A DNA stretch of 64,000 bases, from the NCBI GenBank assembly GCA_019058295.1, contig JAHPZI010000021.1:128001-192000 (forward strand), written 5' to 3'. The notes beneath the pieces are model-generated. The model saw only the letters and a list, made by a program, of their open reading frames with translations, was not told the DNA's origin and did no database searches. Source of the stretch: Promethearchaeota archaeon (GTDB lineage Archaea; Asgardarchaeota; Lokiarchaeia; Sigyniarchaeales; SOKP01). The position numbers and the translations under genes are program-made. Shown one piece after another: positions 2,713 through 54,454 of this stretch (the stretch's first letter is position 1; every line of letters begins with the position of its first letter).

Positions 2713-2829
2713 GAAGAAAATTATATTTATGTCAGAAAAAATTATATAGAAAATGATATTTTTTTATATTTTATAAAAAGGTATCCATTTTTTAGAAAAT
2801 TATGAAGAAAAAATGAGGAGAGTTTAAAA

Positions 2830-3471
2830 ATTAGTGAAAAAAGTATAAAAATTTTCGTGACTGGATTTTTTAATTCGGGAAAAAGTACTTTAGTACATAC
2901 GATTGACGACAAAGCTATCCATGTAGAAAAGGAATTAAGCAAAACATTTAATGAAGAAAAAACAACAACTACTACTGGTTTTGATTTGGGAAGACTAGTT
3001 TGGGCTCGTCCAAACTTAAATAACGAAACTGAAGGGGTAATTATGAGTAAGACAGAGTATTTAAGAGATAAAGATGAATATTTGGGATGGCATATAAAAT
3101 ATGTCGAGTTAAAAGGCAGTCCTGGCCAAATGCAATTTTCTACTGTCCGTAAAATTCTAGCAAAGGGAAGCGACGGTGTGATCTTTTTAATTGATGGATG
3201 TGATTTAGCGAATATTGGCAATGCGTTAGTCGTTTTGGAAGAAATCAAAGCAGTTCTAGGTTCAAATATACCAATGCGAATAATTGCTAATAAATCTGAT
3301 AGGGATGACTTTCATGGATGTGAGGTTATTACAAGTATGATTGGTGAAACAGTATATGTGGGTTCTGGTAAATATAATGTAGGTATAAAAGATGCAATTA
3401 TTGAAGTACTTAAGACAATTTTATATGGTTTAGACCAAAATAAAATTTCAAAAGAGAGTGTGGTAGCTTAA
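2830..3471 (+). CDS. MglA/CvnD-like small GTPase
   Basis: G1 GFFNSGKST, G2 TTTGFDLG, G3 GSPGQ, G4 NKSD. Proposed ATT start at 2830 (SEKSIKIFVTG) after a GAGGAG SD; track start 2857 truncates strand beta1. Confidence 0.85.
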   Translation: MSEKSIKIFVTGFFNSGKSTLVHTIDDKAIHVEKELSKTFNEEKTTTTTGFDLGRLVWARPNLNNETEGVIMSKTEYLRDKDEYLGWHIKYVELKGSPGQMQFSTVRKILAKGSDGVIFLIDGCDLANIGNALVVLEEIKAVLGSNIPMRIIANKSDRDDFHGCEVITSMIGETVYVGSGKYNVGIKDAIIEVLKTILYGLDQNKISKESVVA

Positions 3472-3472
3472 A

Positions 3473-3925
3473 ATGGCTAACTTAAAAGAAAAACAAATTG
3501 TACAGATTCTGAAAGATTTTAGAGGAAGGACAAACATTCTATGTTCTATTTTACTCAATGAAGATGGTTTGATTATTGCATTAGATCAAGCTCAAATGAA
3601 CGAAGATGATGAGTATCATTTATCTTTCAGTGCAATTTGCTCTGGTATTGTTGCATTAGCAGAAAATGGTATTGAAACGATAAAAGAGGAAAATAATGTT
3701 AAAAAAATATCAATTCAAGCGGGAGAACAATTAGATAAGGAGGGATTTACAATTATTCTTCAATCGGTCACAAAAAATATTAAACTATCGATAATGTTTC
3801 CAACGTACTTGAATTTCGGTGTAATTCTTTTTGAATTAAATCAAACAATTCAAAGATTATCGGAGTATTTTTCAATTCCTGAACAAATCAAAAATCTCGA
3901 TGGTGTCAGTACATTAATGCAATAA
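3473..3925 (+). CDS. Roadblock/LC7 (MglB-like) protein
   Basis: ILCSILLNEDGLIIA...FSAICSGIVALAE; translationally coupled to the GTPase (TAA-A-ATG). Confidence 0.85.
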   Translation: MANLKEKQIVQILKDFRGRTNILCSILLNEDGLIIALDQAQMNEDDEYHLSFSAICSGIVALAENGIETIKEENNVKKISIQAGEQLDKEGFTIILQSVTKNIKLSIMFPTYLNFGVILFELNQTIQRLSEYFSIPEQIKNLDGVSTLMQ

Positions 3926-4061: not shown

Positions 4062-5525
4062 GTGGTAATACGTCAATGTATCGTTAATAATATTAATGAA
4101 AAGAATATAAATAAATTTCTGATAGAGAGATTAAACCATAATAATCCTTTAGTACGAAGAAATGCTGCCTTAGAAATAGAAAATCAAGGTATCTTAATCG
4201 CAATTACTCCATTATTAAGTACATATTTTCCTGGATCTTCATATATAATTCCTCGTATAATCGGAAAAATAGGGAAGAAAAATATAAAACTCTTACTTAA
4301 AATTGCAATGAATAATTATAATGGAACGAGAATGCGGCAATATGCTATTGAAGGATTAGGAAAAATTGGAGATAAAAAGATACTAAATAATTTATACTTA
4401 CTTTTAAAGAGTGATGATGTTTATATTAGGAAAAGTTGTATATTAGCACTGGGAGACATTAGGGATAAAAATTCTGCTGGAAAGTTATTATATTTATTAG
4501 ATATAGAAGTTGATTGGATTAAACCCTATATTATTTGGTCACTTGGAAAATTAGGTGATTTAAATTGTTTAAATAAACTAATTGAAATGTTATCCATAAA
4601 AAATTTAAATTTCATCACTAAGAAAATAATTATTAAAGCATTAGGATGGATTGGAGATAAAAGAGCGGTAAAAAAGCTCATTGAACTTTTAAATGAAAAA
4701 AATTCAGGTTTAGAGGATTATATTCTATTTGCTTTGGAAAACATAGGTGATACAAAAGTATTACCAATTTTAATAAAAAATTACTTGAAACCTATATGGT
4801 TTTTAAAGGAACACAATAAATGCATAATAAATAAGTTATCTCCTCAATGGAGAAATTTATTAAACAATTATGATTTAAAAATTTACAATAGAGAAGACTT
4901 ACCTCCACATTTTTATACAAACATCAATAATGAGGATGATTGGTTTTATGGTTGTTTAAACAAATCTCATTACATCTTAAATTCTCAGAAAAAAATCATT
5001 GGTTGTTTAAATTTAATTTATTTAATAAATTATGAGAAAGTTATTCTTTTTTATATGGATACAATTGAAATAAAAGAAGAATTTCGCCGTCAAAAGATAG
5101 GAACAGAATTAGTTAATCAAGTCATTAATGAAATTAAAAAGAAATTCGAGAGATTTAATATCTTTTTGTTAGTTGCAAAATGTAAGCAATATAAATTAAA
5201 ATTTTTTAGTACATTAGGATTTATACCTATAAAATTAAGAAAAACAGGGGTAGGTGCACATTGTATCATGAGTTATCCATTTACAGAAGATTCAGAAAGA
5301 AATTGTAAAAGATTGTTTGAATATTTTTGTTGGAGAGAAGAAAAAAAGGAGATTATCTCATCAGATTGTAAATATGCGTATAATCCCAATCCAACTGGTC
5401 TATATTGGTGTAAAAAAAAAATGATTTATGTTACAGGGTTAGAAAAAAAAAAATGTCCATTCTATATTAAAGAAAAGGAAATAATTAGTGAGAAGAAATT
5501 TTTTGATTTAAAAGAGTTTTTCTGA
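4062..5525 (+). CDS. HEAT-repeat / GNAT acetyltransferase / Cys-rich domain fusion
   Basis: Repeated ALGxIGDxxA HEAT (PBS-lyase type) units; GNAT motif A IEIKEEFRRQKIGTEL and KFFSTLGF; C-terminal DCKY...WC...CPFY. Confidence 0.75.
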   Translation: MVIRQCIVNNINEKNINKFLIERLNHNNPLVRRNAALEIENQGILIAITPLLSTYFPGSSYIIPRIIGKIGKKNIKLLLKIAMNNYNGTRMRQYAIEGLGKIGDKKILNNLYLLLKSDDVYIRKSCILALGDIRDKNSAGKLLYLLDIEVDWIKPYIIWSLGKLGDLNCLNKLIEMLSIKNLNFITKKIIIKALGWIGDKRAVKKLIELLNEKNSGLEDYILFALENIGDTKVLPILIKNYLKPIWFLKEHNKCIINKLSPQWRNLLNNYDLKIYNREDLPPHFYTNINNEDDWFYGCLNKSHYILNSQKKIIGCLNLIYLINYEKVILFYMDTIEIKEEFRRQKIGTELVNQVINEIKKKFERFNIFLLVAKCKQYKLKFFSTLGFIPIKLRKTGVGAHCIMSYPFTEDSERNCKRLFEYFCWREEKKEIISSDCKYAYNPNPTGLYWCKKKMIYVTGLEKKKCPFYIKEKEIISEKKFFDLKEFF

Positions 5526-5600: not shown

Positions 5601-6254
5601 TTGGTAAATAACGTTAACATAGAATGCCCAATATGCAAGACAATGAAAGTGTTAAAAATTCCATTAAAAATTATAAATCAGAGTAAGCAACTTACTACTG
5701 TGTCTGTACCAATAGGATTAGTGTGCAAACATAATTTTCAAGCTTTCATAGATAAAAATTTTAAAGTGAGAGGATATCAAAAAGTTGATTTTCATTTTTC
5801 AAAAATGGAATTTTATGAGGGAGGCATCAACTCTACTATTTCTGACTTAGAAAATGAACAAAAAGTAGAAGAACAATTGATTCAGCTCAGTTCAAAGCCA
5901 ATATTTATTGAAATTTTAAAACTTTTAAGAACTTATGTAGATGATGAGGATATTTTAGGAAGTGCTCTCTTTACATTAGAAGGAAAGGTATTATATTCAT
6001 CCTTACCATTGATGACATTAAATAATATAATTAGAGAATTTGAAATTAGAAATCAGAAGGAATTAATTCAAGTAGAAAAACTTTTTCTGGTTTTAACTAA
6101 TAAACAGAAAATATTCTCGCAATTTCTTGAGATTAGGGGTTATTCTCTTATTATAACTTTAATTTTTTCAAAAAAAATTCAATTAGGTATGGGAGATTTA
6201 CACTTAAGGGAATTAATAAAAAAAATATTAAAAATTAATCCATGTATGAATTAA
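5601..6254 (+). CDS. Zn-binding N-terminal domain plus Roadblock/profilin-like C-terminal domain
   Basis: CPIC...VCKHNFQAFIDKNFKVRGYQKVD (shared with 40161-40700); C-terminal ILGSALFTLEGKVLYSS. Confidence 0.6.
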   Translation: MVNNVNIECPICKTMKVLKIPLKIINQSKQLTTVSVPIGLVCKHNFQAFIDKNFKVRGYQKVDFHFSKMEFYEGGINSTISDLENEQKVEEQLIQLSSKPIFIEILKLLRTYVDDEDILGSALFTLEGKVLYSSLPLMTLNNIIREFEIRNQKELIQVEKLFLVLTNKQKIFSQFLEIRGYSLIITLIFSKKIQLGMGDLHLRELIKKILKINPCMN

Positions 6255-6324: not shown

Positions 6325-8160
6325 ATGGAAAGCAAATTAAATCAAGAAAATCAATATTTAAAATCTATTTTTGACTCAATTTTCGATGAAATAATGATTC
6401 TTGATAGAAACTACCAAATATTAGATGTGAATAAGACATTCTGCGATAAATATAATGTTTCAAAAGAGGATGCTATAGGATCAAAATGTTATAACTTAAC
6501 ACATGGAATTAATATGGTTTGTAAACCACCTGAATGTATCTGCCCTGTAGAAAATGTTTTAAAAACAGGAGAATTCTGTGAATCAATTCATTCCCATCAT
6601 ATAGATGGAGATATAAAATATATAGAACTATTAGCTTTTCCAATTAAGGTTAATGGTGGTTCTATTGAGCAAATTGTAAAAATTGGAAGAGATATTACAG
6701 ATAAGATCAAAGCAAAAAATATATTAAAAGCTTCCGAAGATAAATTTCGAAATTTATTTGAAAAGTTACCTTTTTCAATATTCCTATTAGATTCAAATTA
6801 TAAGATCATTGAATGTAATAGCATATCAGAAATATATATGAATGAATCTAAAAATGAATTAATAGGTATGAATTTCATAAATCTTTTTTCAATCTCGAAA
6901 AAAAAGGTTAAAGAAATCAATGAGATTTTAACAAATGTCATTAAATTTGATTTAAGTGAAATTTTAGAATTGAAATTTATTAATTATAATGGGCAATTAG
7001 CTTGGGCGGAACTTTTCTTTTCATCTGTAATTCTAAGGAATGAAAAATATATCCAAATCATTTTACAAGATATTACTGAAAGAAAATTAATAGAAGATAT
7101 TATAAAGAAAGAGAACCAGAAATTAAGAGAATTAGATCAATTAAAAAAGCAATTAATGGCTCAATTATCAGAAAAATTGAAGTCTCCACTAAATAATATT
7201 TTTGATATTACTGAAATTCTTCTGAATTCCTACAGAGAACAATTGGATGATGAAATTATAGAACTTTTGGATATGATCAAAAAAGGAGGAGAAAGATCAA
7301 TTGATATGGTTGGAAAAATGCTTGAGATCTCAAAAATTGAGGCTGATAAGCTTGAACTTAACTTTCAAACAGAAAATTTATTTGAAATTATTAAGGATTC
7401 AGTGAAAGAAATTAATGATCAAATAAAAAATCAAAATATTATTCTAAATTTAAATCTTACAGAGGATTTGTACTCTGATATCGATAAAATTAGAATTAAA
7501 TATATAATTAAATACTTGTTAACAAGTATCATTAAAGCCAAATCCTTAAAAAAAGAAATAATTGTTTCATTGATTCAAAATAACCATAATGCTGAAATAT
7601 CAACTTCTTTTAGTGGTATTGGTATAAAAAAATTAAAATCTCTTTCTGAGTTGGAATTCTCAAGAGAAATCATTGATCTACATGGAGGCAATTTAATTAT
7701 TAATTCTGAAAGTAAGAAAAAGGAAACCAATATTGTAATAAAATTACCTCTAAAAAATTGGAAGGAATCTTTAATTCATATTTACATTATATATAGGTCT
7801 GGAATCCCACTATTCGATTATTCCTTTATTGAAAAGACTAAAGCTGACAATACTACTCTAATTTCAGGGAGCATTATTGGTATGATGACTCTTTTAAAGG
7901 CAATAATACATGGGAAAAAACAGATCAAAACAATTGATCATGGGGATAGGAAATTAATGTTTGAGATGAATAGCACTAATGATGTGTCTTTTATTCTATT
8001 AGTTAAAGAGGATTTACACATATTGAGAAAAAAATTGAATGATTTAATTGAAGTTTTCGATAAAAAATATAGATATTTAATCAAAAAAATAGATATGACT
8101 CATAGTATTAGTAATTTATGGGAAGAACTCCATGTACTTATTGAAAAATTTTTTGGATAA
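6325..8160 (+). CDS. PAS-PAS / degenerate histidine kinase / longin-like domain fusion
   Basis: Two PAS-PAC units (RDITD, QDITE). H-box reads LSEKLKSPL with no His; HATPase eroded. C-terminal IHIYIIYRSGIPLFDYSF...LISG...IKTIDHGDRKL. Confidence 0.7.
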   Translation: MESKLNQENQYLKSIFDSIFDEIMILDRNYQILDVNKTFCDKYNVSKEDAIGSKCYNLTHGINMVCKPPECICPVENVLKTGEFCESIHSHHIDGDIKYIELLAFPIKVNGGSIEQIVKIGRDITDKIKAKNILKASEDKFRNLFEKLPFSIFLLDSNYKIIECNSISEIYMNESKNELIGMNFINLFSISKKKVKEINEILTNVIKFDLSEILELKFINYNGQLAWAELFFSSVILRNEKYIQIILQDITERKLIEDIIKKENQKLRELDQLKKQLMAQLSEKLKSPLNNIFDITEILLNSYREQLDDEIIELLDMIKKGGERSIDMVGKMLEISKIEADKLELNFQTENLFEIIKDSVKEINDQIKNQNIILNLNLTEDLYSDIDKIRIKYIIKYLLTSIIKAKSLKKEIIVSLIQNNHNAEISTSFSGIGIKKLKSLSELEFSREIIDLHGGNLIINSESKKKETNIVIKLPLKNWKESLIHIYIIYRSGIPLFDYSFIEKTKADNTTLISGSIIGMMTLLKAIIHGKKQIKTIDHGDRKLMFEMNSTNDVSFILLVKEDLHILRKKLNDLIEVFDKKYRYLIKKIDMTHSISNLWEELHVLIEKFFG

Positions 8161-8200: not shown

Positions 8201-9100
8201 GTGGTTGAAATTACTACAATAAATGGGAAAGTAAGTCATCATTATATCTGTCCTGAATGTGGTGGTAGTATCATATTAGATCAAGAGAGAGGTGAAACCG
8301 TTTGTAGTCAATGTGGGTTGATAATTAATGATAAGTTTTTTATTACTTCATATTCTGAGAAAAGGGCATTTACTCGAGAAGAAAAATCTAGAAAGTCGAG
8401 GACTGGAATATTAATTTCTCCTTTATTATCAGATTTAGGATTATGCACGTTAATTGATAAAAAGAACATTAATAATCCTGATTTAAAAAGGGCTGTGAAG
8501 AGGGATTCATATTTAACATGGAAAAAAAGGAATTTATTGATTGCATCAATAGAATTAAAAAGGCTTAGTACAAATTTAGGGATTCCTTGCCATGTAATAA
8601 GTGTGGCATTAAGGTTCTATAAAGAAATTTTTAAAAACAATTTGTTAAAAGGTAGAACCATTAAAGGGATGGTTGCTGCGTGTTTATACGCTGCGTGCCG
8701 GAATGAAAATCTACCAAGAACATTTCAAGAGATATTAAATGAATCTCCGATTAGTTGTAAGACAATTAAAAAATGTTTTAAAATAGTACTCAACTACTTC
8801 AATTTAAAATTGCCACAAGCAAACATAATCTCTTTTATTCCTAGATATACTTCGGCACTAGGTCTAAATAATGATGTTGAAAAATTCGTTATAAAAATTT
8901 TACAAAGTTATTTAAGAAAGGTATCTAATAATGGCAAAAATCCAAAAGGACTCTACGCTGGTGCAATTTACCTTGCTTCAAAACTAAAAAATTCTGGGGT
9001 GACGCAAAAGGAAATCTGTGAAGTCGTAGATACGACCGAAGTCACGCTCAGGTCTAGATACAAAGAGATTATTGAGAATATTAATTTCTTGACAATTTAG
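8201..9100 (+). CDS. tfb: Transcription initiation factor IIB paralogue
   Basis: CPECG...GETVCSQCG Zn ribbon; cyclin repeats KGRT...AACLYAACR and GKNPKG...TEVTLRSRYKE. Confidence 0.92.
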   Translation: MVEITTINGKVSHHYICPECGGSIILDQERGETVCSQCGLIINDKFFITSYSEKRAFTREEKSRKSRTGILISPLLSDLGLCTLIDKKNINNPDLKRAVKRDSYLTWKKRNLLIASIELKRLSTNLGIPCHVISVALRFYKEIFKNNLLKGRTIKGMVAACLYAACRNENLPRTFQEILNESPISCKTIKKCFKIVLNYFNLKLPQANIISFIPRYTSALGLNNDVEKFVIKILQSYLRKVSNNGKNPKGLYAGAIYLASKLKNSGVTQKEICEVVDTTEVTLRSRYKEIIENINFLTI

Positions 9101-9465: not shown

Positions 9466-9855
9466 CTATTTATTCATAGAAATCTGAGGTTTTTTTATCC
9501 TTAGTGCCTTTTCAATGTTCTCTATTAATTTTTTATTTGAAAAAGGTTTCGTTTTAAAGCACAAAACTCCAATAGAAAGTGCAATTTCCTTAATGGTAGT
9601 ATCGGCACTTGCGAATATTATTTTTGCCTCACTATTGATACTAAGAATCTCTTTTGAGGCTTCAATTCCGCTCTTAATAGGCATTCGATGGTCCATTATG
9701 ATAATATCTGGCTTTATGGGGAAATTTTTATACATTTCTACTGCTTCCTTTCCATTTTTAGCAGTGCCAATAACATCAAAGCCAGAGGCTCTCAGCAATA
9801 TCTCATATAATTGCAGTATTGCTAATTCATCCTCAACAATAAAGATAGATGCTAT
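9466..9855 (-). CDS. Single-domain response regulator (CheY-like receiver)
   Basis: IFIVEDE acidic pocket (upstream of track start 9798), PDIIIMDHRMP, FASAD, KPF. Needs an ATA start at 9855. Confidence 0.9.
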   Translation of the reverse strand: MASIFIVEDELAILQLYEILLRASGFDVIGTAKNGKEAVEMYKNFPIKPDIIIMDHRMPIKSGIEASKEILSINSEAKIIFASADTTIKEIALSIGVLCFKTKPFSNKKLIENIEKALRIKKPQISMNK

Positions 9856-9856
9856 T

Positions 9857-12800
9857 TTATATCAGCTCCGGAATTAATATAATAAAATTGCTTCCTTGTG
9901 AGGGATCTCCTTTAACTTTATCTTCTACCCAAATATCTCCATTGTATTCTGATAAAACTCTTTTTACAAGTAATAATCCCAATCCCATACCATGAGTTTT
10001 TTCCTTTCGATCAGAAATCCCTTTGAAGATATGTTCTTTCATTACATCTGGAACACCAATTCCATTATCGATGAATTCAAATTTTGCATAATTAGTACCA
10101 TTTTTAAACTCTCGAGAGATTTTTACAAAGATTTCAATTCTCTTATTCTCATTATATTTAATACCATTAAAAAGGATATTTTCAAAGACATCTAATAAGA
10201 GTTGGTTTGCGTTGACCTTAACTTCTTTGATCTGGGATTCAATAGCAATATTTATGTCTTTATTGGGGAGGCTTTTGTGAATAAAGCCCTTTGCTTCTTT
10301 TAAGATTTGAATTCCATCAACTTTTTCCAGAGGACTCACTGTTTCTGTAATTTCTGAGAGTTTTCTAATATTTGAAACGAGTTTTGATCCCCTTATTAAT
10401 TGATCATTAATAATTATCATTAATTCGTTGATCTTATTTATTTTCTCAGGTTTATTTTCCCACATTGAAAGGAGCCCTAAAGAGGATTGTATATTTTGAA
10501 GTATATTACTTATATCATGAGCAAATAAATCCTTATAGAATTCCGCTCGCTCATAAGCCTCCCGAAAATCTTCTTCGGATTTTTTTAATTTCTGTTCGGC
10601 CACCACCTCTTCTGTAATATCTCTTGCGATACATAAAATTCCTTCGGTTATTGGATACACACTTACTTCATAGTGTCCTATATGACCATTAGGAAGATTA
10701 AATGAATCCCTCACACGGTTTGGGATTCTTGAATTCATTACATCTTCGTATGTCTTAAAGAAGGGAGTTTGTTCTATACCCGGAAACACGTCAGTTATTT
10801 TATGCCCTAACAAATTATCTCTTGGCATATTAACTAATTTTTCAGCTAATTTATTAACTAAGGTGTATACCCAATCTCGATTTATCGCGTAAACTCCATC
10901 TGTTATAGATTCTAAAAGCATCTCATAGCGTTCTGACATTGTACGGTATTTTTCTTCAGATTCTTTTAAGTTTTCTTCAGCATTTTTCTGCTCAGTTATA
11001 TCTATAAATATTTCTTGAACTGCTGGTTTATTATTAAAAGTAATGAGTGAAGCATATATTTCAACAATTCGAGGAGTACCATCTTTTCGAATAATACGAA
11101 ATTGATAATTTGGTGGAACTGGTTTTCCTTTTAAACGTTCCTTATGGCGATTTAAAACGAATTCTCTATCATCTGGATGTATTAGGCTTATAACTTCTTC
11201 TTTAGACATAGACAGTAAATCATCAACGCTATATCCCAAGATATTCGATAATGCCTTATTTGCGAATATAATTTGAACTTCTTGAAGAATACATATTCCT
11301 TGTAATGATTTTTCTACCAACATTCGATATTTTTCTTCTGATTCTTTTAATTTTTGTTCCGCTTTTTTGCGCTCTGTAATGTCCCTTATAAACATGACAA
11401 CCTTATTTTCAGAAAAATATAGAAAACGACCTTCATAATAATGTATCCCATCTTTCATTTGTAGTTTATATTCAAATATCTGTTGTTCTTTTGAATTAAT
11501 TGCTTTTTTAATATGTTCTGCGCTTACTCTACCCACTTCAGGAGGTAATATTTCTATAGCTTTTTTTCCTAGGAATTCCTCTGGAGGTATGTATAATTCT
11601 TCCATTTTGCCACTATATTCTAAAATGGTGGTATCAGCAGCCACTAAGAAAAATAAATCAGGTAGCGCTTCAAAAATAGCCCTAAATTTCTTTTCAGATT
11701 CTTTTAATTTTTGTTCTGCTTTCTTTCTTTCAGTGATATCTCTCATAATAGATAAATAAGTGTTTTCGTCCTTCTCTCCAATACTATCCATATTCAATAA
11801 TGCCGTAAAAGTGCTATTATCCTTCCGCCTTAATTCAACCTCAAAATCTCGAACAAAACCTTTTTCACTTAATATTTGAAATAATTCAGAACGTTGTTCA
11901 TTAGAAACATATGTATTTTGGATACCAACCATGTTTACCTCTTCCTTGCTATAACCAGTAATCTCTTGGAGAACCGAATTCATTTTTAGTACCTTTCCAG
12001 GAGACACAACTCCAATTCCTATTGGTGATTTTTCAAATAATAACCGATATGATTCTTCTGATTCTTTCAATTTTTGTTCTGTTTTTTTGCGATCGGAAAT
12101 ATCCCTAAGAATGGCTAAATCAGCAGGCTCTCCCTTCCATTCTGTTTTCGCGGCATTTATTTCAACACATACGTTGGGTCCATCCTTTTTAAGTAAAATT
12201 GTTTCATATTTTGCGAGGGTTGGTTTACCATCAATTCTTTTCTTAAATCTTTCCATAACCTTATTAATTTCATCAGGATGCAATAAATTTTTAATATTGA
12301 GTTTGAGCAATTCATCAATACTATAACCTGTTACCTCTGAAGCTCGCTCATTTGCATAAACAATTTTGCCTTCTCCCATTCCAATGAAAATACAGTCATT
12401 AGCATTATTAGCTATATCTCTAAAATTCTTCTCAGATTCTTTTAATTTTTCTTCAGCTTTTTTCTGTTCGGTTATATCCTGGATTATGGCTTGGAAAAAA
12501 TTTTCTCCTCGTATTGTTATATTAGCAATATCAGATTTAATCCTTGCAATTTCTCCATCTTTTCTTTTAACTTCTAATTCCTGTGGTTTTATTCCACCAC
12601 CTTTAGTTATTGCTTGAAATCTTTCTTTTAATACATTGATCATACTTTCCGAATAAAAAGGTAATTGTAAGTAATTTTGACCAATTAGTTCATCTCTTGA
12701 ATAACCAAATATGGTCTCAGTACCTGAATTGCAATCAATAATATTTCCAGTGAAATCAAGCAATGCAATTGCATTTGGCGAATTTTCATATATATTTCGA

Positions 12801-13237
12801 TATTTCTCTTCTGATTCTTTTAATTTTTGTTCTGCTCTCTTGCGTTCTGTAATATTACGCCATATTGCTTGTATATATTTCTTATTGTGTATATTTATTG
12901 CCTTGGCACTTACATAAACATCTATTATTTCACCGCTTTTTGTTATTTGTTTCGTTTCAAAGAGATCAGCTCCTTCTGTTAGAACTTTGAAAAAATGTCC
13001 CTTAACTTCTTCTGGTGTTTCGATAATTTCAAAGGCTGGTATCTTAAGTTTCTTAAATTCATCACGTGTATAGCCTAAGTTTTTATATGTTACATCATTG
13101 AAATCTACTAGTTCTCCTGTCTCTGGATCGATGAGTACAATTGAGTCTGCTGCTTGTTCGAATAAAGCGCGATATTTTATTTCACTATCCCTTAATAACT
13201 CATCATCATCATTTTCTTCATTTTTAGAATCGTTCAA
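9857..13237 (-). CDS. Cytoplasmic sensor histidine kinase with seven PAS domains
   Basis: Seven DITE..KAEQKLKESE-type linkers; H-box FAHDISNIL; N-box NILFNGIKY; DNGIG; GMGLGL. Confidence 0.93.
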   Translation of the reverse strand: MNDSKNEENDDDELLRDSEIKYRALFEQAADSIVLIDPETGELVDFNDVTYKNLGYTRDEFKKLKIPAFEIIETPEEVKGHFFKVLTEGADLFETKQITKSGEIIDVYVSAKAINIHNKKYIQAIWRNITERKRAEQKLKESEEKYRNIYENSPNAIALLDFTGNIIDCNSGTETIFGYSRDELIGQNYLQLPFYSESMINVLKERFQAITKGGGIKPQELEVKRKDGEIARIKSDIANITIRGENFFQAIIQDITEQKKAEEKLKESEKNFRDIANNANDCIFIGMGEGKIVYANERASEVTGYSIDELLKLNIKNLLHPDEINKVMERFKKRIDGKPTLAKYETILLKKDGPNVCVEINAAKTEWKGEPADLAILRDISDRKKTEQKLKESEESYRLLFEKSPIGIGVVSPGKVLKMNSVLQEITGYSKEEVNMVGIQNTYVSNEQRSELFQILSEKGFVRDFEVELRRKDNSTFTALLNMDSIGEKDENTYLSIMRDITERKKAEQKLKESEKKFRAIFEALPDLFFLVAADTTILEYSGKMEELYIPPEEFLGKKAIEILPPEVGRVSAEHIKKAINSKEQQIFEYKLQMKDGIHYYEGRFLYFSENKVVMFIRDITERKKAEQKLKESEEKYRMLVEKSLQGICILQEVQIIFANKALSNILGYSVDDLLSMSKEEVISLIHPDDREFVLNRHKERLKGKPVPPNYQFRIIRKDGTPRIVEIYASLITFNNKPAVQEIFIDITEQKNAEENLKESEEKYRTMSERYEMLLESITDGVYAINRDWVYTLVNKLAEKLVNMPRDNLLGHKITDVFPGIEQTPFFKTYEDVMNSRIPNRVRDSFNLPNGHIGHYEVSVYPITEGILCIARDITEEVVAEQKLKKSEEDFREAYERAEFYKDLFAHDISNILQNIQSSLGLLSMWENKPEKINKINELMIIINDQLIRGSKLVSNIRKLSEITETVSPLEKVDGIQILKEAKGFIHKSLPNKDINIAIESQIKEVKVNANQLLLDVFENILFNGIKYNENKRIEIFVKISREFKNGTNYAKFEFIDNGIGVPDVMKEHIFKGISDRKEKTHGMGLGLLLVKRVLSEYNGDIWVEDKVKGDPSQGSNFIILIPELI

Positions 13238-19281: not shown

Positions 19282-19824
19282 ATGTCGAAAAACATTAGAC
19301 GCCCCTTTAGAAAAATTTTAGTGTTAGGTCTTGACAATAGTGGTAAAACATCAGTAGTGCTTAATTTTATTGGGAAAATTAATTTAACTAATTTTATCAC
19401 TCCAAAAGCAACGGAAAAAGTGAATATTGTTAACTTTGAAAAGGATAATTTTAAATTTGAAATATTGGATTTTGGAGGAAAAGAAGTTTATAGAAATGAA
19501 TTTCTAAAAAAATTTAATGAATATATTACAGATACAAAAGAAATTTTTTATGTAATTGATATTCAGGATTATGAAAGGTATGATCTCGCATTGAATTTTT
19601 TAAAAGAAATAATAAAAAGGTTAAACTCAATTAATTATGAGATAGAATTTACGTTTTTTCTTCATAAATTCGATAATGATATATTTAACCTCACCCCCAA
19701 TATAAATGATGAGCTAATTGATGACTTAGTAGAGAAAATAAAAAATATCGTACCTTCTGACGAATTTAATGAAATTTATAAAAGTACAATATATACTGTT
19801 TTAGATAAAATTCATGTATATTAA
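19282..19824 (+). CDS. Arf/Rag-like small GTPase
   Basis: GLDNSGKTS, DFGGKE, YVID, HKFD. Confidence 0.85.
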   Translation: MSKNIRRPFRKILVLGLDNSGKTSVVLNFIGKINLTNFITPKATEKVNIVNFEKDNFKFEILDFGGKEVYRNEFLKKFNEYITDTKEIFYVIDIQDYERYDLALNFLKEIIKRLNSINYEIEFTFFLHKFDNDIFNLTPNINDELIDDLVEKIKNIVPSDEFNEIYKSTIYTVLDKIHVY

Positions 19825-51502: not shown

Positions 51503-52654
51503 ATGGAGTATAATCTAAGAGATTTTTTTCTTCCACCATTATTCATATCGTTGGGGCTTGGTTATCAAATTTTCATATATTTTTTATATCAATATTATAA
51601 GGCTAAAAAAGAGAAATTAGAATTTACTGAAATTTTACTAGCTTATGGATTAATATTTGGATTAACTCTAACAGGATTTTTCATTCGTATAATAAATCTT
51701 TATTATACAAGAGAAATTAATATTGAAATCTTTCATTTCTTAACGAAAATAACTTTTCTTATCCTTTATTCAGCTTTAATGTTGTTTTTCATTATAATAT
51801 CAACCAAATCCTTCCAAAAAATCATAAACTCAATTTTTACAAAAATTTTAGCAATTTTATTAATTATACCAATGATTACAGTCTTTTTATTTCAACCTGA
51901 AAACCTTTTATTTGGTCTCATTTCTGGAATAACTCTCGGGATATCATATTCATATATCTTTTATTTTCATACTAGACTGATTAAAATTTCTACAGGTGAT
52001 ATAAAAAAAAGATTAAACCTCATACTTTTAGGATTAACATTATGTGCGATACAACATTTTATTGGAGGATATTTCCCCAGTTATGTATTATTTAAAGGTT
52101 ATAGTGAGCACCTTCAATTAATTTCTGCTCCAATATTTGTTTGTGGATTAATTATTGTTTTTTTAGGCGTTTTTAGATTTCCCGCCTTTCTTGAATTTGG
52201 ATGGAAAGAATCTCTACTATATGTTTTTATTATAAATCAAAGTAATTTAAAAGTAATTTACACATTTGATTTCAAAGAAATCATAAATCAACGTGGAAAA
52301 CCAATAAATAAACTTTCGGATATCAATGAAATTAAGCAGTTTTTTTCAAGCGGGATTATTGGAATCAATAAGATTATATCAGGTATAACAAACTCAAAAT
52401 CTGAATTTATTGAATCAATTAGACAAAAAGATTTCATAATTCTTTTGAATCGTGGAGATGAGCCTCAATCTTATATAATTTATTGTATATTAGTTAGTAA
52501 AGATATGAACAGCCTTAGATATTTTTTAAAAACAATTAAAAAGGAATTTGAACAGATCTATAAAAATATACTCATTAATATGAATGATCTAGAAGGCAAA
52601 GAAGAAAAAATATTCTCAAATTTTGATGCGATTATGAAAAAATTAATTGAATAA
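51503..52654 (+). CDS. Seven-TM membrane protein with a C-terminal longin-like domain
   Basis: Seven hydrophobic helices, then WKESLLYVFII...FFSSGIIGINKIISGI...IESIRQKDFIILL...LKTIKKEFEQIY. Confidence 0.7.
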   Translation: MEYNLRDFFLPPLFISLGLGYQIFIYFLYQYYKAKKEKLEFTEILLAYGLIFGLTLTGFFIRIINLYYTREINIEIFHFLTKITFLILYSALMLFFIIISTKSFQKIINSIFTKILAILLIIPMITVFLFQPENLLFGLISGITLGISYSYIFYFHTRLIKISTGDIKKRLNLILLGLTLCAIQHFIGGYFPSYVLFKGYSEHLQLISAPIFVCGLIIVFLGVFRFPAFLEFGWKESLLYVFIINQSNLKVIYTFDFKEIINQRGKPINKLSDINEIKQFFSSGIIGINKIISGITNSKSEFIESIRQKDFIILLNRGDEPQSYIIYCILVSKDMNSLRYFLKTIKKEFEQIYKNILINMNDLEGKEEKIFSNFDAIMKKLIE

Positions 52655-52663
52655 GAAAAATTT

Positions 52664-53752
52664 ATGGGTATTAAATTGATTTTAAATGAATTCCCTATAA
52701 AAGGACCCTTAAAAGAACCATTATTAGTATTAGAATCATTAATAGTTTTTTCTTTTATAGAACTGGCAGTTATATTTTGGATGAGAATTAGAAAAAGTGA
52801 ATTAAAAAAATCACTGGAAAAAGGATATATCTGGTTATTTCTTGGTTATTCTCTTTTGAGGTTTTTTACAATAGTTGGGGATTATTATGTTGATGGTTTT
52901 CATTTTAGAACTTTATTTTTAAATGTAGGCTATTTAATTCAAATGGCATTTTTAATTAATTTTGTAAGAATTATGGAAAATTACAAAGTTTTTATTAGAA
53001 AATACTTATTTACTAAGATTTGTTTGGTTTTAATTTTTATTTATTTCATAGTTTTATTCATTGATAGTAATTATGTGATCTTTTTTTTAATTTCATTTTG
53101 GATATTTTTTTTAGTATTCTTTATAATTTATTTGAAGGATTTAGGATCAAAATTTAATAATAAAATAGATTTAAGAAGTTTTAAACTAAATTTGCTTAAA
53201 TTTTATATAGGAATGATTTTAATAGTTGTAGGATCTGCTACAACTATGGACTTTGTGATCGAGATTTTTGGATTTGGTATCCGCCTTATAGGAAATATCC
53301 TTCAACTAATTGGGGTAATTTTTATTTCATTTTTCTTTTTTTCTATTCCTTCTTATAGTGAATATGATTGGCAAGATAAAATTATTAGCGTTTTTATAAT
53401 GCATAAATCTGGTCTTTTTATCTATAAAAAGTCTTTTAGAGAAAAAGCCTCTCCAATTGATGAATCAGTCATTACAGGTGCATTGACAACTATAGAAATG
53501 ATGTTAGAAAAAGTAAGCCACATTGATAGTATTTCTATAATTAAAAAGAAAGAAAAAATTCTAATTTTTCAACCAGGGAGATTTATTTATGGGGTTTTAA
53601 TATGTGAGGAAGAGTTAGAATCCCTTAAAATTTTATTGAGTAAATTTATTAGTAAAATTGAAACAATTTATTCTAATGTTCTTGAGGATTGGGATAGAAA
53701 TTTAAATGTTTTTACGCCAATTGAAGGCATCGCGAAGGAAATTTTTTATTAA
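52664..53752 (+). CDS. Seven-TM membrane protein with a C-terminal longin-like domain
   Basis: Seven hydrophobic helices, then WQDKIISVFIMHKSGLFIYKKSF...VITGALTTIEMML...IIKKKEKILIF. Confidence 0.72.
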   Translation: MGIKLILNEFPIKGPLKEPLLVLESLIVFSFIELAVIFWMRIRKSELKKSLEKGYIWLFLGYSLLRFFTIVGDYYVDGFHFRTLFLNVGYLIQMAFLINFVRIMENYKVFIRKYLFTKICLVLIFIYFIVLFIDSNYVIFFLISFWIFFLVFFIIYLKDLGSKFNNKIDLRSFKLNLLKFYIGMILIVVGSATTMDFVIEIFGFGIRLIGNILQLIGVIFISFFFFSIPSYSEYDWQDKIISVFIMHKSGLFIYKKSFREKASPIDESVITGALTTIEMMLEKVSHIDSISIIKKKEKILIFQPGRFIYGVLICEEELESLKILLSKFISKIETIYSNVLEDWDRNLNVFTPIEGIAKEIFY

Positions 53753-53914
53753 TAGCAAAATTTTCAATCAGAAATATTATTTCAGTTATAAGAATTATGG
53801 ACTTTAAAATATGGTTAATAAAAACAAGTATTACTTATCAATAAATATTAAATTTTTAAATAAAAATCAATATTAGAAATATGAGTACAATTTAAGAGTT
53901 CTTGGAGGATAACT

Positions 53915-54454
53915 ATTTCATCGGATTATTCTTTTAAAATCTGTATATTTGGAGATACGGGAGTTGGGAAAACCTCTTTAATTTCTAGATATCTAGGTGA
54001 ACAGTTCGAAAAAGATATTGGAAAAGATATGGAAAGATCAATGGGAGTGGATATTAATCATAAAAATATAGTAGTAGATGATATAAAGGTTTCATTGCAG
54101 ATATGGGATTTAGTAGGTGAGGAACGATTTAGAACTATGTTACCTTTTTATTTACGTGGATCATCTGGTGGTATTTTCATGTATGACACTACTCGGGAGG
54201 AAAGTTTGAACAAGATAGATGAATTGCTTAATATATTTAAGGAAAGTAATGCTGGAATGCAGGTTCCAATTATAATGGTTGGAGGAAAATCAGATCTTCA
54301 GGAAATGAGAACTGTTTCTATTAAAAAAGCGGATAGTATCTCAAAATCCCATGATTTTTATGATTATATTGAATGCTCTTCTAAAACGGGGGAAAATGTT
54401 GAGTTCTTATTCAATACACTAACTAGACTAATTTTAAAGAAGATTGGTTTGTAA
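53915..54454 (+). CDS. Rab-like small GTPase
   Basis: FKICIFGDTGVGKTS (upstream of track start 54029), LQIWDLVGEERF, GGKSDL, ECSSKTGENV. ATT start at 53915 after a GGAGG SD. Confidence 0.9.
   Translation: MSSDYSFKICIFGDTGVGKTSLISRYLGEQFEKDIGKDMERSMGVDINHKNIVVDDIKVSLQIWDLVGEERFRTMLPFYLRGSSGGIFMYDTTREESLNKIDELLNIFKESNAGMQVPIIMVGGKSDLQEMRTVSIKKADSISKSHDFYDYIECSSKTGENVEFLFNTLTRLILKKIGL

Follow-up and report, generated by a model that had tools for sequence, protein, structure and literature searches.

Many fusions of a longin domain with two-component domains have been reported from Asgard archaea by Liu et al., who regard them as prokaryotic two-component wiring combined with 'eukaryotic' regulators (bioRxiv 10.1101/2020.10.19.343400, Fig. 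5c). Longin and roadblock dimers serve as platforms for small GTPases, as in MglB, TRAPP, Mon1-Ccz1 and Ragulator (PMC10933270). Asgard genomes encode small GTPases as well as longin and roadblock proteins by the dozen. According to Tran et al. (2024), the GTPase genes of MK-D1 are generally not found in operons with roadblock, longin or TRAPPC3 genes (PMC10933270), so that neither the pairing of a regulator with its GTPase nor the cues to which the GTPases respond can be told. In the actinobacterial G protein systems known as conservons, a kinase (CvnA) is encoded with a roadblock protein (CvnB), a DUF742 protein (CvnC) and a GTPase (CvnD), and CvnA8 autophosphorylates (PMC13343842). Here we describe a gene from a Promethearchaeota archaeon, situated at positions 6325–8160 on the plus strand of the 64,000-nucleotide stretch of contig JAHPZI010000021.1 that was analysed (the window). 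It encodes a pseudokinase of 611 residues, which consists of two PAS domains, a dimerization and histidine phosphotransfer (DHp) hairpin and a catalytic and ATP-binding (CA) domain that have lost their catalytic residues, and a C-terminal domain with a predicted longin fold. The gene belongs to a conserved cluster with a small GTPase and a roadblock protein.

Like the fusions of Liu et al., the pseudokinase joins a longin-fold domain to two-component domains in an Asgard genome. Their report gives architectures only and is silent both on any loss of His or ATP site and on a conserved locus containing a GTPase, a roadblock protein and the transcription factor TFB. The longin is there named 'NPRL2-like', whereas the tail of the pseudokinase finds its top matches in sedlin, Sec22b, adaptin and SRX. 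Full-text literature searches returned no paper that describes His and ATP-site loss in these fusions, and none that describes the conserved locus. The architecture class is already known; the pseudokinase state and the conserved cluster are the parts for which no report was found. The locus resembles a conservon in that a kinase-like sensor would feed a G protein, here proposed from the gene layout, and in that sensor, roadblock protein and GTPase are all present. Unlike CvnA8, the pseudokinase has neither the His nor the ATP site, and its platform is a longin domain that is fused to the sensor. Unlike the conservons, the locus is archaeal and includes TFB, and no DUF742-type protein is found among its Pfam results. 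It is best regarded as an analogue of the conservon, the nearest functional one, and not as a member. With respect to the pattern that Tran et al. described for MK-D1, the locus is an exception.

The open reading frame of the pseudokinase is intact and has 45 full-length homologues with identities of 43–95%, labelled Promethearchaeota or Hermodarchaeota. In a homologue search with residues 270–611, these 45 proteins span the whole region, and beyond them there is a sharp drop to ordinary kinases that align over the DHp and CA domains alone. The family counts given below refer to 46 members, the target and its 45 full-length homologues. The DHp-like helical hairpin (residues 259–340; 7099–7344) is supported by the alignment, by the helices of the model and by HisKA, which matches residues 274–340 with 26.1 bits in the whole protein and 31.5 bits in the fragment (Pfam cut-off 26.9). 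The degenerate CA domain (7366–7752) is HATPase_c-like, and HATPase_c scores 20.5–23.4 bits at residues 387–477, under the Pfam cut-off of 26.4. A model of residues 258–611, with a mean predicted local distance difference test score (pLDDT) of 78, shows an extended DHp hairpin followed by a compactly folded CA sandwich, both at a pLDDT of about 85–90. When this model was used in a Foldseek search, GacS, RetS, HK853, ZraS and DivL were found at E values of 1e-12 to 1e-10.

The H-box of the target reads L-S-E-K-L-K-S-P-L, with Glu-283 (codon 7171–7173, plus strand) replacing the phospho-accepting His. A regular-expression count of the residue at this position gave Glu in 39 members, Lys in 6, Asp in 1 and His in none, and the family pattern in the alignment is S/T-[E/K/D]-x-L-K-x-P-L. 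There is no alternative conserved His in DHp helix 1 of the family alignment. The nearest canonical kinases (P0048, P0050 and P0053), which are without the longin tail and are 32–34% identical to the full-length target, contain S/A-H-E-L-K-T-P-L. In the CA domain, the Mg-binding Asn of the N-box is a Ser in the target and is variable across the family, some members retaining the Asn, and the Asp of the G1 box is gone. In the subclade of the target, a deletion of about 27 alignment columns takes out the F-box, the ATP lid and the G2 box; in the other members this stretch is shortened and degenerate. The protein has the DHp hairpin and the CA sandwich fold of the class-I histidine kinases, and it has neither their His nor their ATP boxes. 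The pseudokinase is a true homologue of the class-I histidine kinases in which the catalytic residues have been lost. From these residues it is predicted to be unable to bind ATP or to autophosphorylate, and it is probably a signaling scaffold derived from such a kinase.

The gene is maintained under purifying selection and is not decaying. Against its nearest orthologue, L011 (574 codons compared, 92.5% identity), the ratio of non-synonymous to synonymous substitution rates (dN/dS, Nei-Gojobori) is 0.25 overall, a value from one sequence pair with small counts (83 substitutions). In the same pair, the DHp shows 0 non-synonymous changes in 85 codons, and dN/dS is 0.18 for the CA-like domain and 0.32 for the longin tail. 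Within the family, the longin tail is the best-conserved part of the pseudokinase, with a mean column identity of 65%; this conservation and the 45 intact homologues agree with the ratio in indicating maintenance. The window encodes archaeal TFB, roadblock proteins and many small GTPases, which, together with the labels of the homologues, marks the genome as that of a Loki-type Asgard archaeon. The genome (3.2 Mb in 30 contigs, 79% complete; G+C of the window about 28%) contains a second paralogue of 1485 residues with many PAS domains, the H-box L-S-E-K-L-K-Y-P-L and a longin tail (L004:4372–8829, minus strand, contig C25).

The C-terminal domain (residues 483–611; 7771–8160) was assigned from predicted models. 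Residues 478–611 were folded with AlphaFold together with 19 orthologous tails, which resulted in a pLDDT of 78 and a predicted template modeling score (pTM) of 0.73. The topology according to DSSP is β1-β2-α1-β3-β4-β5-α2-α3, and two independent models, each with a mean pLDDT of 78, agree on it. There is no N-terminal helix and there are two C-terminal helices, as in the longin-type topology. A D-H-G-D motif in the β3-β4 turn is invariant. In a Foldseek search against the Protein Data Bank (PDB), every match with E ≤1e-3 was of the longin type (SRX, AP sigma/mu, Bet5/Trs23/sedlin, Sec22b), with a template modeling score of 0.72–0.75 between the tail and Sec22b. VIA-align, which is independent of Foldseek, gave a Z score of 12.4 for sedlin and Sec22b, scores of 11–12 for AP2 mu, AP3 sigma, synbindin, Fuzzy, SRX and VAMP7, and scores of 8–9 for roadblock proteins. 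NPRL2 is absent among the top structural matches listed, and the scores of the different longins lie close together.

At the sequence level, a Pfam search with the last 130 residues of the pseudokinase, carried up to E 10, revealed no family match: Longin, Sybindin, Sedlin_N, Clat_adaptor_s, SRX and Fuz_longin_1 were all missing, and only noise was returned (DUF1374, LRRK2 propeller). The tail has no Pfam match to Robl_LC7 (PF03259) either, its topology being of the longin type instead. A profile of the tail gave no match under E 0.02 among PDB sequences, and hhalign comparisons of the tail with the roadblock proteins of the locus and two neighbors of no family gave probabilities below 1%. In one related cluster of the ESM Atlas, Fuz_longin_1 occurs in 22% of the members, which is a lead only, with feature-search scores of at most 0.89. 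The tail is a longin-fold domain by prediction, without sequence membership in any curated longin family.

The same fold class as that predicted for the tail is found in MglA-MglB, TRAPP Bet5-Trs23, Mon1-Ccz1, Ragulator and SRX-SRbeta, and a dimeric platform encoded beside a small GTPase is the arrangement that would be expected from platforms of the MglA-MglB type. Platforms of the MglB/TRAPP type differ in that they are not covalently joined to a kinase-like sensor, and they have no detectable sequence relation to the tail. The tail model also matches lokiarchaeal Roadblock-Longin/Rag-like structures (PDB codes 8yqg, 8yl2 and 9m28; PMC10933270) with VIA-align Z scores of 9.0–9.6; those domains are fused to GTPases or to each other, and not to sensors.

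The input side of the pseudokinase consists of PAS domain 1 (residues 16–126; 6370–6702; PAS_9/PAS_4, E 3e-18) and PAS domain 2 (residues 140–250; 6742–7074; PAS, E 3e-9). PAS1 contains the motif C55-x4-H60-x5-C66-x4-C71-x-C73-P (6487–6546), which is conserved in 21 of the 46 members, namely in all those with that PAS type, except that C71 is a Tyr in two of the 21. The motif is found once only in the 3.2-Mb genome. It is a reasonable inference from this conservation that the Cys/His motif is a candidate metal, Fe-S or redox site. The remaining members have PAS domains of other types or, at the N terminus, a receiver. In P0040, P0042 and P0124 the receiver lies ahead of the degenerate DHp-CA block and its longin domain, which places this block downstream of a two-component input.

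The original prediction, which was made from the window's sequence, had called the protein a histidine pseudokinase with a longin-like output. Its observations that the phospho-accepting His is absent, that the N and G boxes are eroded, that the first PAS carries a Cys cluster and that the C terminus is longin-like are all borne out by the family alignment and the models, and the maintained function it looked for in dN/dS is seen. It had named two outcomes that would overturn it, a C terminus without a longin fold, and orthologues that retain the His while this copy decays; the models predict a longin fold, and for the second outcome the opposite was observed.

The small GTPase of the locus (2806–3471, plus strand; about 216 residues in its family) has the P-loop GFFNSGKS, the G3 motif GSPGQ and the G4 motif NKSD. 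Its closest solved relatives by sequence are Sar1 (E 5e-7), followed by Rab and MglA (E 0.01). The gene is abutted by that of a Roadblock/LC7 protein of 150 residues (3473–3925, plus strand; Robl_LC7 24.5 bits, cut-off 23), and the two overlap in orthologous loci. Of 11 informative contexts, 10 have this GTPase-roadblock pair 5' of a family member, with the genes on one strand; most of the contexts are metagenome contigs of related organisms and not fully independent. Further roadblock proteins also belong to the locus that about ten contigs have in common. The arrangement recurs around P0008, P0009, P0028, P0010, P0012, P0042 and P0007. Two contexts were reached via the GTPase alone, and each has a 3' gene with SE[QK]LK and the longin tail (E 1e-58). 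In a further case (G065), the GTPase and a family member are on one contig, 2.2 kb apart. A TFB gene is adjacent to the family member, 5' or 3', in 8 of 12 contexts. The GTPase family is 55–79% identical to the query across metagenome-assembled genomes labelled Prometh-, Thor-, Odin- and Hodarchaeota, and its distribution is patchy: in the family to which the window's genome belongs, 11 of 46 genomes contain it.

The GTPase reading frame has an unusual beginning. No in-frame ATG, GTG or TTG is present before the P-loop, the first being a GTG at 2857 inside the β1/P-loop region, and an ATG at 2802, within an A-run, is one base out of frame. The orthologues begin M-E-x-x-K-I-F-V-T-G. In contigs from two sediment runs, which are fragmentary, the locus carries neither an insertion nor a deletion. 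The oddity could be an assembly error of the insertion or deletion type, a non-canonical start (ATT at 2830 or ATA at 2845) or a real frameshift.

We consider it evenly poised whether sensor input is relayed through the dead kinase core to a longin platform that acts on the GTPase-roadblock module of the locus, a reading that draws on synteny and fold. The DHp four-helix bundle would dimerize the protein, as in kinases, and dimerization would pair two longin domains into a dimeric platform of the kind used to hold small GTPases. PAS1, with its Cys3-4/His motif, would sense a metal, Fe-S or redox cue, and a fused receiver domain would be the input instead in some relatives. The signal would travel down the DHp coiled coil and alter the engagement of the GTPase-roadblock module by the longin platform, which may be a docking site or a co-factor of a GTPase-activating protein (GAP) or guanine nucleotide exchange factor (GEF). 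The state of the GTPase would then set the output of the locus, possibly through the adjacent TFB paralogue. The ancestral kinase core would be retained as a conformational relay and not as an enzyme. Coupling to the GTPase is suggested by the conserved synteny taken together with the longin fold.

The window contains three small GTPases (2806–3471, 19282–19824 and an open frame at about 53936–54454), all of which had been put forward as possible partners in the original prediction. The synteny described above supports the link indirectly for the first, and the other two belong to unrelated loci. The GTPase at 19282–19824 (plus strand) is an Arf/Gtr1-RagA-like protein of 180 residues (Arf 59 bits, Gtr1_RagA 56 bits). 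That the protein signals to a GTPase instead of a receiver was too strong a statement, since three family members carry an N-terminal receiver and the locus keeps a protein with DHp and receiver (REC) domains as well as PAS kinases. The module looks inserted into a phosphorelay rather than a replacement for one.

Several points weigh against the proposed coupling to the GTPase. The fold assignment comes from predicted models with a mean pLDDT of 78, and the contact between longin domain and GTPase is a deduction from synteny and fold. The GTPase has its own abutting roadblock partner, so that the longin domain may be dispensable. Longin domains are also put to uses that do not involve GTPases, SNAREs and adaptor subunits being examples. 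The divergent member P0046 is encoded away from the cluster and is the sole exception among the 11 informative contexts, and the 1485-residue paralogue of the same genome is outside the GTPase locus too. The genes between GTPase and pseudokinase vary (HEAT/GNAT, a 220-residue protein, TFB, an extra PAS-ATPase), and a single operon is therefore not certain. Among 20 loci in other genomes that encode membrane proteins ending in the same longin subfamily, a scan with a small-GTPase hidden Markov model found a GTPase within 5 kb in 2, and none adjacent. The genome has about 58–60 matches to the Ras/Arf superfamily, approximately one per 55 kb. With some 60 GTPases per genome, 2 of 20 within 5 kb is the chance level, and at such a density proximity needs a chance control.

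A more specific form of the proposal is unlikely. In it, the degenerate DHp-CA-longin block would be a signal-gated regulator of the GEF/GAP type, or a docking platform, through which a redox or metal signal at the PAS domain, or phosphorylation of a receiver, would set the state of a dedicated Sar/Arf/MglA-like GTPase and thereby control a dedicated TFB paralogue. If true, sensor, longin platform, small GTPase and transcription would be the successive stages of one complete archaeal pathway. Such a pathway would prefigure the longin-based nutrient signaling of eukaryotes (GATOR1/FLCN-Rag), and the GTPase would be the first in Asgard archaea whose regulator could be assigned from the arrangement of the genes.

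The main rival, itself somewhat doubtful, is a pseudokinase of the DivL/RetS type that modulates the genuine phosphorelay of the locus, its DHp either docking onto a phosphorylated receiver (of the DHp-REC protein or a small REC protein) or forming a heterodimer with an active kinase. The sole task of the longin tail would be dimerization or docking, perhaps with the closely related longin tails of MFS transporters or other membrane proteins as partners, and it would not contact a GTPase. In DivL of Caulobacter and RetS of Pseudomonas, the DHp-CA fold is likewise kept as a conformational or binding module with no normal autophosphorylation; unlike the pseudokinase, neither has a longin output. 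In DivL the His is replaced by a Tyr and the CA domain is intact, and RetS heterodimerizes with GacS through its DHp. The DHp is the most constrained part of our gene, as the 85 codons without a non-synonymous change illustrate. The locus also offers possible partners, namely a His-containing DHp-REC protein without a CA domain, whose gene recurs in orthologous loci, a receiver of 110 residues (9466–9798) and two giant putative PAS kinases, one of which, with 1126 residues, is encoded at 9857–13237. The closest relatives of the tail are on MFS transporters, and the genes for membrane proteins with longin domains occur without GTPase synteny. RetS and DivL are among the top structural matches, but many ordinary kinases score alike, so these matches carry little weight. 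This alternative offers no reason why, in 10 of 11 contexts, the gene is found together with the GTPase-roadblock pair.

It is quite improbable that the protein is an anti-TFB factor, in which the dead GHKL/DHp core or the longin tail sequesters the adjacent TFB and releases it on a PAS signal, the GTPase being a parallel input. GHKL domains can act as anti-sigma factors that hold sigma factors, as SpoIIAB and RsbW do, and this precedent, together with the direct adjacency of TFB to a family member in 8 of 12 contexts, speaks for the idea. The TFB gene is missing, however, in four contexts that retain the GTPase pair or a family member, and its adjacency fits equally well with TFB as the output of the GTPase route. 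A kinase or ATPase that is still active, with a non-canonical acceptor or nucleotide site, is very improbable: the CA-like domain is well folded in the model and the N-box Asn is kept in some members, but the His is absent from 46 of 46 members with no conserved substitute in DHp helix 1, the protein lacks the G1 Asp, the G2 box and the ATP lid, and HATPase_c stays below the Pfam cut-off. The last possibility, a decaying kinase gene on its way to a pseudogene with a chance C-terminal extension, has the eroded catalytic motifs in its favor and was ruled out by the intact open reading frames in the target and 45 homologues, the dN/dS of 0.25, the conservation of the tail (65%, the best of the protein) and the conserved synteny.

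The tail itself is widespread in Asgard genomes. An exhaustive HMMER search with it gave 245 clusters at 50% identity, and among the matches listed the domain lies mostly near the C terminus, the exceptions being stand-alone proteins and a few others. Its hosts include transporters of the major facilitator superfamily (MFS), proteins of about 360 residues (the two encoded in the window are multi-pass membrane proteins), very large winged-helix proteins, receiver-PAS-kinase-like proteins and stand-alone proteins of about 135 residues. Ten copies are present in this genome, and the tail profile matches 149 of 201 sampled genomes of the phylum, including 81 of the 85 high-quality ones. A structure search of the ESM Atlas recovered like folds fused to V4R, TPR, TrmB, HTH and Arf/Ras, nearly all from Promethearchaeota or Thorarchaeota.

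MFS transporters with a C-terminal longin-like tail are encoded at L005:2136–3827 (contig C28) and L006:1751–3403 (contig C27). The tail of the C28 transporter is the closest relative of the pseudokinase tail in its own genome (E 2e-37), and P0047 is another MFS transporter with a closely related tail. Speculatively, an MFS transporter with a longin tail recalls the transporter-to-Ragulator signaling of eukaryotes. Within the window, two tandem genes for multi-pass membrane proteins with longin-like ends (51503–52654 and 52664–53752, plus strand) are followed by the Ras/Rab-like GTPase at about 53936–54454 (PF00071, 104–131 bits). The tandem pair recurs in related genomes and its GTPase neighbor does not; a conserved longin-GTPase adjacency at 51503–54454 was ruled out by the scan of 20 loci.

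On the plus strand, the order of the genes is GTPase, roadblock, HEAT-GNAT, 217-residue protein, pseudokinase and TFB, with gaps of 1–137 nt. The HEAT-GNAT gene (4062–5525) encodes a fusion of HEAT repeats and a GNAT acetyltransferase with a small Cys3 C-terminal module. The 217-residue protein (5601–6254) contains an N-terminal Cys-rich motif, CPxC...CxH, which is possibly a Zn-ribbon by inspection only. It has no Pfam match, its profile matched nothing among PDB sequences, and a weak likeness of its C-terminal half to a roadblock paralogue was found with hhalign (probability 30%, 28 columns). The TFB paralogue (8201–9100), with a Zn-ribbon and two cyclin folds, is situated 41 nt 3' of the pseudokinase. 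At two orthologous loci (L003:6424–7986 and L033:11150–12691), a protein of 513–520 residues with PAS and HATPase_c domains and no recognizable H-box is encoded directly 5' of the pseudokinase; this gene is absent from the window.

The divergent arm of the locus is on the minus strand. Its first gene (2073–2549) encodes a conserved protein of 158 residues with no family match, whose profile matched nothing among PDB sequences. It is followed by a Cys3 peptide of 41 residues (1941–2066), for which a gene of 41–42 residues is called in the corresponding position of four orthologous loci, by a Roadblock/LC7 protein of 121 residues (1557–1922; Robl_LC7 38.2 bits) and by a roadblock-like protein of 150 residues (1021–1473; Robl_LC7 22.4 bits, slightly below the cut-off). 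The Cys3 peptide, S-D-C-K...G-L-x-W-C-x-K-K...V-T...E-K...C-x-F-Y, clearly resembles the module (5361–5465, plus strand) in which the HEAT-GNAT protein of the opposite arm ends. The C-terminal part of a conserved protein of 478 residues and no known family (3–968) continues off the window and has counterparts of 436–498 residues in orthologous loci. Just beyond the window start lies the gene of the DHp-REC protein (L035:10559–11404, minus strand), which has 281 residues, the H-box I-S-H-D-L-K-E-P-L and no CA domain. Most orthologous loci likewise have this gene as the last of the minus arm, and beyond it there is here an open reading frame of 1671 residues. The DHp-REC protein may exchange phosphoryl groups with the giant PAS kinases that flank the locus, or it may bind the pseudokinase.

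On the descriptive side the evidence is solid: the protein is a pseudokinase, its tail has a predicted longin fold, its function has been maintained and its locus is conserved. In this locus a GTPase is accompanied by its roadblock partner, by a longin platform that is physically joined to a sensor and by a candidate transcriptional output; since about ten contigs share this set, a small number of soluble proteins can be expressed and put to the test. A two-component scaffold of the bacterial type has been re-used after the loss of catalysis and carries a platform domain of the eukaryotic type, a tangible case of the mixed wiring that has been suggested for the archaea from which eukaryotes arose. 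Should GTPase binding fail, the protein would still stand for a new, conserved family of pseudo-histidine kinases in archaea, with an unusual PAS sensor of the Cys/His type.

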